From an uncultured bacterium (GTDB lineage Bacteria; Cyanobacteriota; Vampirovibrionia; Gastranaerophilales; Gastranaerophilaceae): DNA of 64,000 nucleotides. The notes under the pieces were generated by a model, which saw only the letters and a list, made by a program, of their open reading frames with translations, had not been told where the DNA came from and made no database searches. The stretch lies in assembly GCA_947428835.1 (NCBI GenBank), contig CANENE010000002.1:16901-80900 (forward strand), given 5' to 3'. Positions 56,543-61,628 of this stretch are shown in pieces; position 1 is the stretch's first letter; each line of letters begins with the position of its first letter. The position numbers and the translations under genes were made by a program.

Positions 56543-56684
56543 GTCGCCCTGAACTCGTTTCATGGTCTAACCAGGTCTGTGGCGTTACATCTTTTTTACA
56601 TACCAACACCTCAGATGCTGAAACAAGTTCAGCATGACGTAGCGCGTATATTAATGTTTCAATTTGTCACGGCGAGTGATTATA
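56543..56684. repeat. REP/MITE-like composite repeat, copy C (L, R, third box)
   Basis: L is GTCGCCCTGAACTCGTTTCATGGTCTAACC (56543-56572). R is CACCTCAGATGCTGAAACAAGTTCAGCATGACG (56607-56639). GTCACGGCGAGTGA at 56666-56679. Confidence 0.8.
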
Positions 56685-57673: not shown

Positions 57674-57955
57674 CTACCCTATCAACCCTCGTTTTTTTAG
57701 AACAATATCAACTTTTCTGATAAATTCATCATCTATGTTATCTTTACTTACAAACATTTCGCCGTCGCCTGAGATAAACCAGTTTAAATTTACATTTAAA
57801 ATATTATACAATTGAATAGATAATTCTATGGATGGAACTCTTTTTTTACCTTCATAGCCCCAAAGTGTACTTGCAGGAATGCCAATCTTTTCTGCCATTT
57901 TTTCAACAGATAAATGCAGTTCTTTGCGAATTTTCTTTAGATTTTGAGCGTACAC
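57674..57955 (-). CDS. XRE-family HTH regulator, long class (cassette 4)
   Basis: MYAQNLKKIRKELHLSVEKMAEKIGIPASTLWGYE HTH and the NLNWFISGDGEMF motif. Divergent from P4. Confidence 0.85.
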   Translation of the reverse strand: MYAQNLKKIRKELHLSVEKMAEKIGIPASTLWGYEGKKRVPSIELSIQLYNILNVNLNWFISGDGEMFVSKDNIDDEFIRKVDIVLKKRGLIG

Positions 57956-58068: not shown

Positions 58069-58137
58069 AATTGGTAAAAAATGGCATTTCTGCCTCACTT
58101 TTTTGTACACAAAAAAATAACTTTTAAGGAAAATAAC
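58069..58137 (+). promoter_or_regulatory. Conserved 5' leader (GGCA-N4-TGCC hairpin, TTTTTGT-AC-ACAAAAA hairpin, AAGGAAAATAAC-ATG)
   Basis: Alignable with 28807-28864 and 63234-63317(-). Confidence 0.5.
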
Positions 58138-61100
58138 ATGGAAAAATACAACAAGGCTCAAGGAGTTTATTTGCTGTGCTTGAAGGCTGATTTGAAATGC
58201 AAAAAAGCATTTTCACTTATAGAAATCCTGATAAGTTTAATCATCATCTCTCTTCTTATCGCGGCTTTTACTCCAATTATCACAAAGAAGCTTAAAGCAT
58301 CAGATATTTCAATAGGTTCTTTTGGAAGCGGAAGTAACATTAATATGACATTAGAAAGACAAGTCACAAAAGAAGATTGTGATAAATATGATGCAATTTT
58401 TATTCCTGCAGCAATGAACGGGGGCACAAGAAATCTTTGTGTTACAAGATATAATGTCGGAGATAATATAGATAATGGCGGAGTTCCAATTGCAAAAAGC
58501 GCTAAGACTCTTTCAGTCGGAAGTACATGTAATGACCATTTAAACTGCTGCTGGCAAGGAGCAACTGCAAACAGTTGTGCAAATGGTGATAGCAATAGTG
58601 ATTACTCGGGGTGTAATAGAACAGTCTGCGGATGGCAGGCAGCAAACGCCAGCTGTGCTGCGTATGCTCCAGATAATGAAAATGAAGGAAGCTGGAGACT
58701 TCCAACCAAAGAAGAAATATTAAACTGGCAGGACAACTTTTCTAATCTTCAAACAAACAAAGGTAAAGAAGGGCTTCAATTATGCAGTTATGAAGCAATT
58801 GATGGTTATACAAAATGCTCTGCAACAACAGCTTGCAATGATACAGGTCTTACCCATAACGGTTGTCATCCGCATCATATATTTTCAAACAATGCATTTG
58901 ACACATTTGCACTAAACCGAGCAAAATTTGACTATTCAAATAGTGAAAATATTACATATTCAGCAGGTGCAAGATGTGTATTGGATAAAATAGCTGTTGA
59001 TGTCTCTGAGCTTCCAAATGGTGGCGGGATAAAAGACCCGACAGTTGACCCTTTTTATGGAGAACCCAAAGATCAGGCAGATTGTGATAAAGTAGTTGCA
59101 ATATTCATAGATAAAAAAATGTCAGGAGCAAACAGAAACATCTGCGTTTCTAAATATAACGTAGGAGACGCTGGTCCCGATGGCTTTGGACCGCCTATAC
59201 CTGAAAGCTTCAATCAATATATAATGAATGCAGGCCAAACTTGTCCTTATAATGGCAATTGTTGTTGGAAAGGAAAGACTGCAAATGCTTGTGGTATTAC
59301 AGGCAATGCCGGAGCAAATTATAGTGGCTGTAACAGAACCGTATGCCAATATAATGCTGCAAACGCTGCCTGCAGACAATATAATGCTTTTGGAGCAACT
59401 GCCGTTGGAGCCTGGAGGTTGCCAACCGGTGCAGAATTTAGTGTATGGATGCAATACATGAAGGAAATAAGCAACAACAAAGGACCTGACGGTCTGCAGC
59501 TTTGTGTAAGTGGAACAAGCGCAGGATATGTACAATGTGCAAATATACAAAACTGCCCGGGCTTTTCAAGTGTTTCCGGATGGGGTGCTCATTGTACGCC
59601 ATTTAACAATTGGACTTCAACGATAATTTCAAAAACTTATCAAACCTATAATACTGCAGGAGGAGTATTTGGCGGAGGGAACGATATTCCTGCAAGTGCA
59701 AGATGTGTTTATGACGGCATTACAAAAGCCAATAATTATGAAGAAGATTTAAGCGACTATGACGATTCTAATGCTCCAAAAGATGAACCAAAGTCTCAAG
59801 CTGATTGCGACAAATTGACAGCTATTTTTATTCACAAAAAATATGCTGGAGGTTCAAGAAATCTTTGCATAAGTAAATATAACGTAGGGGATAGCGGACC
59901 AAGCGGCTCAGGGCCGACAATTCCATCAGCTTATAATACTTATATAATGAATGCAGCTCAAAGTTGCCCTTATAATGGTTATTGCTGCTGGAAAGGAAGG
60001 ACTGCAAATGCTTGTGGTATTACGGGTAATGTCGGAGCTAACTACAGCGGATGTAACAGAACCGTTTGTCAGTGGCACATTGCAAATGAAAGTTGTTTAT
60101 TGTGGACTGCGGGAGGAAAAACCCAAGCAAGAGCTTGGAGACTCCCAACACAGGCAGAATTTACAAATATTGTAAATTATATGAATATCATAAATAACGA
60201 TAGAGGTGCTGACGGTCTGCAGCTTTGTGTAAGTGGAACAAACGCAGGATATGTACAATGTGCAAATATACAAAACTGCCCGGGCTTTTCAAGTGTTTCC
60301 GGATGGGGTGCTCATTGTACGCCATTTAACAATTGGACTTCAACGACGGGTTTAACTTATGATGCTGCCGGTAATGCATATAGCGGGGGCGCAGATATTC
60401 CTGCAAGTGCAAGGTGCGTGTATGATGGAACCATAAATAAACCAAGCGATATAGGAGACTATGATGAAAGTAATGCGCCCGATGATGAACCAAAAAGCCA
60501 AGCAGATTGTGATAAATTAACCGCAATATTTGTACACAAAAAATACTCAGGTGACCCAAGAAATATTTGTATTTCAAAATATAACGTAGGAGATACCGGT
60601 CCAAGCGGTTCAGGACCCCAAATTCCTACTCAATATGCGCAGTATACAATTAATGCTGCTCAAGCTTGCGGTAAATCCGGCTATTGTTGTTGGAAAGGTA
60701 AAACCGCTAATTCTTGCGGAATAGTAGGAAATGCCGGAGCTGATTATTCGGGTTGTAACAGAACAGTATGCCAATGGTATGTTTCTGATGCTGCCTGCAA
60801 AGAATATACTGCAGGTGGAAAAACCCAAGCCGGTTATTGGAGACTACCTACCCAGGTTGAGTTTTCAAGCATGTTCCAATATATGGGAGAAATTAACAAT
60901 AATAGAGGTAAAAACGGAATTCAATTGTGCACCTCAGGAACTAATCCGGGTTTTGTACAATGTGCAAATATACAAAACTGCCCGGGCTTTTCAAGTGTTT
61001 CCGGATGGGGTGCTCATTGTACGCCATTTAACAATTGGACTTCAACATTGGGTATAACCTACAATTCCATTGGAAATACATTTAGCGGGGGCGCAGATAT

Positions 61101-61146
61101 TCCTGCAAGCGCAAGATGTGTTTATGATGGAACAAAGGTAGAATAA
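58138..61146 (+). CDS. Giant prepilin-N-terminus protein with four DUF1566/FISUMP-like Cys-rich modules (P4, 1002 aa)
   Basis: 24-aa leader then FSLIEILISLIIISLLIAAFTPIITKKLKAS. Module ends at ARCVLDK, SARCVYDG (three times). Modules 2-4 are tandem paralogues. Confidence 0.85.
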   Translation: MEKYNKAQGVYLLCLKADLKCKKAFSLIEILISLIIISLLIAAFTPIITKKLKASDISIGSFGSGSNINMTLERQVTKEDCDKYDAIFIPAAMNGGTRNLCVTRYNVGDNIDNGGVPIAKSAKTLSVGSTCNDHLNCCWQGATANSCANGDSNSDYSGCNRTVCGWQAANASCAAYAPDNENEGSWRLPTKEEILNWQDNFSNLQTNKGKEGLQLCSYEAIDGYTKCSATTACNDTGLTHNGCHPHHIFSNNAFDTFALNRAKFDYSNSENITYSAGARCVLDKIAVDVSELPNGGGIKDPTVDPFYGEPKDQADCDKVVAIFIDKKMSGANRNICVSKYNVGDAGPDGFGPPIPESFNQYIMNAGQTCPYNGNCCWKGKTANACGITGNAGANYSGCNRTVCQYNAANAACRQYNAFGATAVGAWRLPTGAEFSVWMQYMKEISNNKGPDGLQLCVSGTSAGYVQCANIQNCPGFSSVSGWGAHCTPFNNWTSTIISKTYQTYNTAGGVFGGGNDIPASARCVYDGITKANNYEEDLSDYDDSNAPKDEPKSQADCDKLTAIFIHKKYAGGSRNLCISKYNVGDSGPSGSGPTIPSAYNTYIMNAAQSCPYNGYCCWKGRTANACGITGNVGANYSGCNRTVCQWHIANESCLLWTAGGKTQARAWRLPTQAEFTNIVNYMNIINNDRGADGLQLCVSGTNAGYVQCANIQNCPGFSSVSGWGAHCTPFNNWTSTTGLTYDAAGNAYSGGADIPASARCVYDGTINKPSDIGDYDESNAPDDEPKSQADCDKLTAIFVHKKYSGDPRNICISKYNVGDTGPSGSGPQIPTQYAQYTINAAQACGKSGYCCWKGKTANSCGIVGNAGADYSGCNRTVCQWYVSDAACKEYTAGGKTQAGYWRLPTQVEFSSMFQYMGEINNNRGKNGIQLCTSGTNPGFVQCANIQNCPGFSSVSGWGAHCTPFNNWTSTLGITYNSIGNTFSGGADIPASARCVYDGTKVE
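59000..61143 (+). repeat. Intragenic tandem repeat, three modules of about 700-720 nt with near-identical cores
   Basis: The core ...GTACAATGTGCAAATATACAAAACTGCCCGGGCTTTTCAAGTGTTTCCGGATGGGGTGCTCATTGTACGCCATTTAACAATTGGACTTCAAC recurs from 59530, 60253 and 60955. Copies 1 and 2 share about 145 nt with one mismatch. Confidence 0.9.
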
Positions 61147-61221: not shown

Positions 61222-61486
61222 GTCACCCTGAATTCGTTTCAGGGTCTTACCAGGTTTGTGGTAACGCATAAAACCCGTTGTTACGCTTCAACACCTCAGA
61301 TGCTGAAACAAGTTCAGCATGACGCAACTGCGCATTGATGTTTATTTTCGTCACTGCAATGACATATTTTAAACATTAATTTATATAACCGTCACCCTGA
61401 ACTCGTTTCAGGGTCTTACCAAGTAAAGTAAAATAAATAATTATTATATTACACCTCAAAATATCAGATGCTGAAACAAGTTCACT
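61222..61486. repeat. REP/MITE-like composite repeats, two tandem units (copy set D) between convergent P4 and P5
   Basis: L1 at 61222-61252 (plus tail to 61272), R1 at 61292-61324, L2 at 61391-61422, degenerate R2 at 61465-61486. GTCACTGCAATGAC at 61350-61363 with its inverted partner ATTGCAGTGAC at 61611-61621. Confidence 0.8.
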
Positions 61487-61628
61487 TTGGTGTATAGAAG
61501 TCTTTTTGCACACATAGGTCATCATTATTTGTAAAAACAGTAAATTATAAATTTATCAATTTTTTAATTATATTTCGCACCTGCAACGAAACTGCTGCAA
61601 GCTAAAGACGATTGCAGTGACATAACAT

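Follow-up and report, generated by a model that had tools for sequence, protein, structure and literature searches.

The stretch of DNA analysed here, called the window, is a 64,000-nucleotide (nt) piece of contig CANENE010000002.1 from an uncultured bacterium of the Gastranaerophilales, a placement to which the CTP synthase of the genome also points, its neighbours being 68-73% identical. It carries five related genes, P1 to P5, and we are concerned with P4, which encodes a protein of 1021 amino acids (aa) counted from the first ATG, or of 1002 aa from the likely start at 58138 (MEKYNKAQ). In this protein a prepilin-type N-terminus is followed by four modules, M1 to M4, the limits of which were set by hidden Markov model (HMM) (Table 1). 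The leader reads KKA before the cleavage point and FSLIEIL, also given as FSLIEILISLIIISLLIAAF, after it, with Phe at +1 and Glu at +5. The family N_methyl (PF07963) matches P4 with 23.4 bits for a cut-off of 21.2, as expected of a type IV pilin-like motif, and Lcl_C (PF07603) matches it in four stretches with 60.3 bits for a cut-off of 34.9. The full-length AlphaFold model (predicted template modelling score, pTM, 0.42) has an N-terminal helix, predicted with low confidence at residues 46-74, and four globular modules which stand apart, the linkers between them being of low confidence; it is uninformative on contacts between modules. M3 alone was modelled with a pTM of 0.89 and a predicted local distance difference test score (pLDDT) of 93. 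Submitted to Foldseek, the module model gave weak matches only (E >= 0.04, template modelling scores of 0.2-0.35), which were of consistent types: domains like the formylglycine-generating enzyme (FGE), in OvoA, EgtB and PorK, the lectin domains of CD23 and LOX-1, and phage DUF1566 proteins. A profile search of PDB sequences gave no matches. Judged from its sequence, P4 belongs with the type IV pilin-like proteins, and its modules are predicted to be disulfide-rich members of the C-type-lectin superfamily carried on flexible acidic linkers. Pilus machinery is encoded elsewhere in the genome: Peptidase_A24 at C2:217867, T2SSE (a PilB-type ATPase, 418 bits) at C10:6386 and a secretin at C10:8640.

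Table 1. Features of P4 and of its neighbours, in positions of the window
Feature	Position	Strand	Description
P4 ORF (open reading frame)	58081..61146	+	prepilin-type protein with four Lcl_C/DUF1566 modules
Prepilin cleavage/methylation motif and hydrophobic N-terminal helix	58195..58302	+	N_methyl match at aa 39-62
Module 1 (M1)	58357..59037	+	distinct subtype (RQVTKEDCDKYD...), own variable subdomain
Module 2 (M2)	59062..59784	+	M2-type framework (DAGPDGFGPP, NAFGATAVGAWRLP) and linker (ITKANNYEEDLSDYDDSNAPKD)
Module 3 (M3)	59785..60486	+	M3-type framework
Module 4 (M4)	60487..61143	+	M4-type framework (GKTQAGYWRLP); final module, then stop codon
Homogenised core, M2 copy	59486..59623	+	encodes DGLQLCVSGTSAGYVQCANIQNCPGFSSVSGWGAHCTPFNNWTST
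Homogenised core, M3 copy	60209..60346	+	138 nt, one mismatch with the M2 copy
Homogenised core, M4 copy	60954..61046	+	93 nt, 100% identical to 60252-60344 and 59529-59621
Second short exact tract (M4/M3)	61083..61109 = 60381-60407	+	27 nt, encodes SGGADIPAS, directly before ARCVYDG
XRE-type helix-turn-helix (HTH) regulator gene	57674..57955	-	upstream of P4, divergent; HTH_19 46.5 bits, HTH_3 37.7 bits
P1	28820..30109	+	single module, subtype as in the target gene of the retroelement on contig C3
P2	36243..37796	+	two modules, the second with M2-like framework
P3	54886..56466	+	prepilin motif and two modules
P5	61686..63233	-	prepilin motif and two modules

We would divide each module into a framework, its N-terminal two thirds, and a variable subdomain extending from the LQLC motif to the ARCVYDG motif. 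M2, M3 and M4 follow each other with periods of 723 and 702 nt, as the original prediction had it and as a repeat finder reproduced. Outside the tracts listed in Table 1 the frameworks of P4 are only ~66% identical to each other, and inside them the copies are almost or exactly the same: the lone mismatch between the M2 and M3 cores (59519 G, 60242 A) exchanges Ser for Asn. M1 has no copy of the homogenised core. The prediction had announced a single mismatch between 59488-59630 and 60211-60353. This is right for the tract of 138 nt, and the interval proposed overshoots it by 7 nt and holds 6 mismatches. Likewise, the identical stretch of about 95 nt that it saw at 60952-61050 proves to be the exact tract of 93 nt, and the peptide DGLQLCVSGT, which it quoted for all three cores, is present in M2 and M3, the identity of M4 beginning only at ...VQCANIQ. 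These tracts come from direct comparison of the modules; BLAST at 93% identity missed the M2-M3 tract, its high-scoring segment pairs having run into the flanks, and exact-match and scoring-segment scans took its place. The longest exact runs between the modules of P4 are of 104, 93 and 93 nt. When the mismatch positions were shuffled 20000 times, the mean longest run was 16-17 nt and the observed length was never reached. Among conserved degenerate codons, 48-53% are identical in the frameworks and 28-32 of 29-32 in the cores (P about 1e-8 to 1e-9). This means that constraint on the protein is insufficient to explain the cores, as they are identical at synonymous sites too. The three modules of P4 are the only places in the genome where the core DNA is found.

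The layout M1-M2-M3-M4 is shared by eight complete genes (986-1036 aa), and its M2-M3-M4 part by several genes which are cut off. In the module alignment, frameworks and linkers are position-specific across the four-module paralogues: the M2 signature of Table 1 recurs (DAGPDGFGPP, the second framework motif and the linker), as do DSGPSGSGP and ESCLSWTANGKTQAG for M3 and GKTQAGYWRLP for M4. M2 of P4 is identical to the M2 modules of paralogues at 0.96, 0.72, 0.90, 0.72 and 0.94, and the frameworks of P4 are 76-81% identical to the same-position modules of other genes against the 66% found within P4. From LQLC to ARCVYDG the situation is reversed, the sequences of different genes being nearly unalignable and those of M2-M4 in a single gene being similar or identical. 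Windowed nucleotide identities over the eight genes express the same thing: 0.70-0.82 for frameworks at the same position in different genes and 0.5-0.78 within a gene, as against 0.6-0.85 within a gene and 0.3-0.5 between genes for the variable subdomain.

Maximum-likelihood trees were built for the 24 M2-M4 modules of these eight genes. The framework tree requires 4 changes of position label (shuffled mean 12) and 19 of gene label, and places the M2 modules of all eight genes in one 100/100 clade; the tree of the variable subdomain requires 16 changes of position label, the maximum, and 7 of gene label, the minimum possible. By the approximately unbiased (AU) test, a P4-only clade is rejected for the framework (difference in log-likelihood 182, p = 3.7e-8) and an all-M2 clade is rejected for the variable part (difference in log-likelihood 431, p = 7e-4). 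The module phylogeny comparing core with flanks, which had been suggested as a check for conversion, thus gave significantly discordant trees for adjacent segments. Since the layout and the position-specific frameworks and linkers are common to the paralogues, the amplification of modules is older than the expansion of the gene family. The proposal that P4 itself grew by tandem amplification falls with these results, as the four-module layout is common property of the paralogues and the P4-only framework clade is rejected. The proposal of recent intragenic gene conversion gains from them, through the identity at synonymous sites, the discordant trees and the ends of the tracts, which lie in conserved motifs. 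The sequence comparisons indicate that P4 inherited its four-module layout and that its variable subdomains were later copied between modules. Every one of the eight complete subfamily genes has four modules, and whole repeats, with frameworks at ~66%, are far from near-identical. Codon differences between genes amount to 3297 non-synonymous and 854 synonymous ones in the variable part, and to 3180 and 4184 in the framework; the pattern of the variable part would fit relaxed or diversifying selection, saturation blocking a firm dN/dS.

P4 is not alone in this. A search of the whole genome with tblastn and HMM yielded 43 ORFs of the pilin-lectin family with 104 modules, the leader being present in all complete paralogues examined. 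Near-identical intragenic tracts of 47-223 nt exist in nine multi-module genes, and eight of the nine (P4, C14:39210, C9:84531, C12:14187, C4:150253, C12:57254, C22:10320 and C22:3) have one or more inside alignment columns 171-321, with ends at DGLQLC, YVQC, NWT or ARCVYDG. The framework contains two tracts: the sole tract of C3:36825 and the second one of C12:14187. Homogenisation is strong in 5 of the 8 complete four-module genes and old or weak in the other 3. The same reversal between framework and variable part appears in five three-module paralogues of another species, G024 (an assembly of 20 contigs), the position label of the frameworks requiring 4 changes (shuffled mean 7.5) and the gene label of the variable part 4, the minimum (shuffled mean 9.9). 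In a further species, G019, the modules of a four-module gene (C13:30800-36000) are 91% identical to each other in the variable subdomain, where exact tracts reach 164 nt. The family is present in 24 of 24 congeneric genomes at <=46% identity, with module numbers from 1 to 5 in the wider family. Compared with 5.8e9 protein clusters, full-length P4 found its best foreign match at 34% identity; M3 alone gave no match at E<=1e-30, and a 32-nt pattern of the core gave none in JGI metagenome contigs.

The nature of the variable subdomain is suggested by a diversity-generating retroelement (DGR). The only reverse transcriptase (RT) of the genome lies on contig C3 (C3:76817-80354), in a complete DGR cassette with the order target gene, bAvd-like gene (PF22296, 48.8 bits), RT and template repeat (TR). 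The TR (C3:76817-77029) matches the 3'-terminal 213 nt of a single-module paralogue (C3:78957-80354) at 92.5% identity and two further gene ends at 87-88%. Placed in the module alignment, this variable repeat (VR) starts at the LC of L(Q/M)LC and ends at RCVKE-stop; its 213 nt coincide with the subdomain that is hypervariable from one multi-module paralogue to the next and that is homogenised within P4. VRs of the DUF1566 type are a recognised class of DGR targets, one of which has three tandem lectin-fold domains, all diversified (PMC5758913). Because the DGR rewrites the same stretch in the single-module paralogue, the variable subdomain of P4 is probably, by homology, the ligand-binding surface. 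The core of P4 does not itself behave as the VR of a DGR: no template was found, the core being confined to the three P4 modules; the copies differ by one G/A in 138 nt; and the sole RT/bAvd pair is on C3, by another paralogue. Family-wide, mismatches in the variable subdomain have no A or T bias and fall mostly at third codon positions (592 versus 344 and 328), which looks like ordinary drift after conversion.

Some observations concern the DGR itself. Of the 16 TR/VR mismatches, 12 have T rather than A as the TR base, read on the coding/RT strand. In the relatives G018 and G046 the TRs are canonical and A-specific, and they read AAC at codons which are TAC in the TR of this genome. A DGR of inverted polarity was set aside, as the TRs of the relatives carry AAC at the TAC sites; to judge by these codons, it is more likely that the TR decayed or was overwritten by a Tyr-rich VR-like copy, and the element on C3 may be frozen. 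Outside the VR, the DNA of P1 and that of the DGR target gene are 73-80% identical, and the 3' end of P1 is not matched to the present TR.

The reading we favour, with a probability of about three in four for the whole of it, is intragenic gene conversion of the variable subdomains in P4 and its family, in a layout older than the paralogues. The four-module layout would have arisen once, ahead of the multiplication of paralogues, so that frameworks and linkers would be position-specific orthologues. The variable subdomain would then have been overwritten from module to module within the gene, repeatedly, by homologous and non-reciprocal recombination, probably of the RecA type, initiated and resolved in the conserved motifs which bracket it. 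In P4, at least two recent events would account for the 138-nt tract (M2, M3) and for the 93-nt tract nested in it (including M4). Selection may have favoured three like binding sites, giving for each gene a multivalent adhesin of one specificity, framework positions being kept distinct. Without this selection argument one would expect recombination to act preferentially on the frameworks, which are better conserved. GC-biased gene conversion was tried and rejected, the GC content at third codon positions not being raised in the variable subdomain (0.28 vs 0.31).

Several points weigh against this reading. The restriction to the variable part would rest on the selection argument, plain recombination being expected to prefer the frameworks. 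The data come from one assembly of one strain. In three of the eight paralogues (C2:134, C7:33309 and C3:36825) the variable subdomains are no more alike within the gene than the frameworks, so that homogenisation must be episodic. Only 8 of 55 foreign multi-module homologues have a variable identity above the framework identity; the behaviour is therefore lineage-specific. Finally, Foldseek found the module model to be only weakly similar to solved structures with a C-type lectin or FGE fold.

The other explanations have to account for the same tracts. A recent tandem amplification specific to P4, with one module duplicated twice and all but a constrained core diverged, would agree with the tandem arrangement of the modules and with the variable module count of the wider family. 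We consider it extremely unlikely, as the frameworks of P4 are nearer to those of other genes, the P4-only clade is rejected, the linkers are position-specific in all paralogues, and cores identical at synonymous sites beside frameworks near saturation are incompatible with a single duplication date. If an embedded RNA or DNA element under selection kept the cores identical in the absence of copying, the identity itself would be explained, and this is all that speaks for it. Each paralogue has at the same module position a core unrelated in sequence, no structure or motif common to the cores of different paralogues was seen, the P4 core is nowhere else in the genome, and the tracts are nested with lengths which differ between module pairs; we give this idea next to no credence. 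The repeats themselves could also be unreal, a de Bruijn assembly with k=55 having mis-threaded or homogenised them, in which case the cores or the module order would be wrong. The assembly (1.80 Mb in 24 contigs, ~32% GC, completeness 97.7%, contamination 0.03%) has indeed joining contig ends which overlap by exactly 55 nt, and this points to de Bruijn assembly with k=55; contig ends cut 12 of the 43 family ORFs, and contig breaks are found at the paralogues whose exact repeats exceed about 150 nt. The warning of the original prediction that such a locus is prone to assembly trouble was justified for the family, which is a main cause of the fragmentation, and the true numbers of genes and modules must be at least 43 and 104, as the family breaks contigs. 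For P4, mis-assembly is unlikely because its exact runs of 93-104 nt are within the span of ordinary reads and the order of its frameworks and linkers fits the paralogues, being the positional signature of seven other genes. Moreover, P4 lies inside a contig of 219 kb, a de Bruijn assembler cannot create identity between three different pairs of unique flanks, the within-gene likeness is also seen where subdomains are similar but non-identical and in the assemblies of other species, and the contamination is very low. An artefact, be it a wrong join or a collapsed extra module, is in our view quite improbable.

Copying by a retroelement, where the RT and Avd of the DGR, or a lost TR, would home one cassette into all modules, has points in its favour: the genome has a DGR whose VR covers the same subdomain, from LC... 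to RCV..., tandem lectin-fold domains jointly diversified from one TR are known (PMC5758913), and the longest tracts (such as that of 223 nt in C22:10320) cover the whole VR-equivalent region. Against this, the genome has no extra template copy of the P4 core, the three cores agree at every adenine, mismatches in the variable subdomains favour neither A nor T and are concentrated at third codon positions, and the sole RT is on another contig than P4. G019, moreover, has its 164-nt identical tracts in a genome (95% complete) in which no DGR-type RT was detected. We hold this explanation to be very improbable. Another reading would see in the stretch from LQLC to ARCVYDG a transferable specificity cassette, with a dedicated mechanism that actively places a copy in each module of a gene. 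Candidates for the mechanism are retrohoming of a non-mutagenic kind by the RT and Avd of the DGR, and recombination targeted to the conserved motifs that would serve as anchors. Were this unlikely reading true, the genus would alternate DGR diversification in single-module genes with multiplication of a chosen cassette in multi-module ones, a two-step evolution of multivalent pilus adhesins.

Several known systems resemble P4 in part. In bacterial surface adhesins such as the alpha C/Rib family and the Aap/SasG-type proteins, tandem repeats are in concerted evolution through intragenic recombination, the whole repeats being near-identical and their copy number variable. P4 resembles them as a surface-exposed modular protein with nucleotide-identical stretches between tandem modules. 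It differs from them in that the identity covers only a sub-segment of 93-138 nt, the frameworks being about 66% identical, and in that these frameworks are position-specific orthologues across eight genes with a copy number of four in all. In Neisseria, pilin antigenic variation arises through gene conversion of pilE with silent pilS cassettes as donors. There, as is proposed for P4, variable segments between conserved motifs of a pilin-type protein are replaced by non-reciprocal recombination. In P4, unlike in Neisseria, donor and recipient would be modules of one gene, and the outcome is homogenisation within the protein. Nor do the paralogues look like silent cassettes: the complete ones examined carry the leader, and the five in the window each have an XRE regulator gene as partner. 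The collagen-like adhesin Lcl of Legionella, which gave PF07603 its name, has the domain that P4 contains in four copies; in Lcl a single such domain stands C-terminal to collagen-like repeats in a protein with no prepilin leader, whereas in P4 the four are borne by a pilin N-terminus. Wu et al. 2018 (PMC5758913) place in their category d the DGR variable proteins whose VRs have a C-type lectin fold and are of the DUF1566/Fib_succ_major class. DGR targets of the DUF1566 class, including LdtA of Legionella, share with P4 the Pfam domain Lcl_C/DUF1566 and variability in the same C-terminal subdomain; P4, unlike them, has no template repeat, adjacent RT/Avd or adenine-specific differences, and its modules are made alike, not different. 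Literature searches yielded no description of the pilin-lectin family in Melainabacteria.

Some further features of the locus and of the family may be recorded. Each of the five P genes of the window is paired with an XRE regulator gene. The original prediction had assigned the second module of P2 to the same subtype as the P4 modules, with the start EPKDQADCDKLTAIFIDK; this start is confirmed. A 47-nt repeat (...CACCTCAGATGCTGAAACAAGTTCAGCATGACG, with a palindrome inside) lies in the 3' flanks of P genes, at 56593-56639, 61278-61324 and 61446-61492 of the window. P1 has a weak match to Furin-like cysteine-rich repeats, under the Pfam cut-off. Exact tracts are found between paralogues as well: 258 nt between C6:67749-69917 and C10:58549-60900, 236 nt between C3:160451-163411 and C22:10320-11708, and 170 nt between positions 58213-58382 of the window and C14:39210; module 2 of P4 and module 2 of C3:36825 have a tract of 104 nt in common. 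Such long exact tracts mean that exchange is intergenic as well as intragenic. Module 1 of C22:3-1313 has an M3-type framework followed by an M2-type linker (ITKADNYSEDLSDYDDSNAPKD); it is a recombinant, as unequal exchange between positions could produce. In many foreign multi-module homologues (proteins P0010-P0090) the relation is the reverse of that in P4, the frameworks being 60-89% identical within a protein and the variable subdomains as different as between proteins.

The pattern of P4 is that of a known process, concerted evolution, restricted here to one subdomain of the tandem lectin-like modules, which is hypervariable and probably binds the ligand. It provides a clean natural example of conversion that spares the better-conserved parts of a repeat and acts on the most variable one, where sequence homology by itself would favour the reverse. 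The pattern also shows why such genomes assemble poorly; for this family, counts of genes and modules in metagenome-assembled genomes based on short reads are lower bounds. The Gastranaerophilales are uncultured gut relatives of cyanobacteria whose attachment is almost undescribed, and the present genome has about 43 pilin-type genes with lectin modules. In these genes a stable scaffold can be separated from a fast-changing subdomain, which points to the predicted binding surface; in some paralogues the DGR hypermutates this subdomain, and in others it is made the same in the modules of a protein. The prediction is that each multi-module gene would encode a multivalent adhesin of single specificity.

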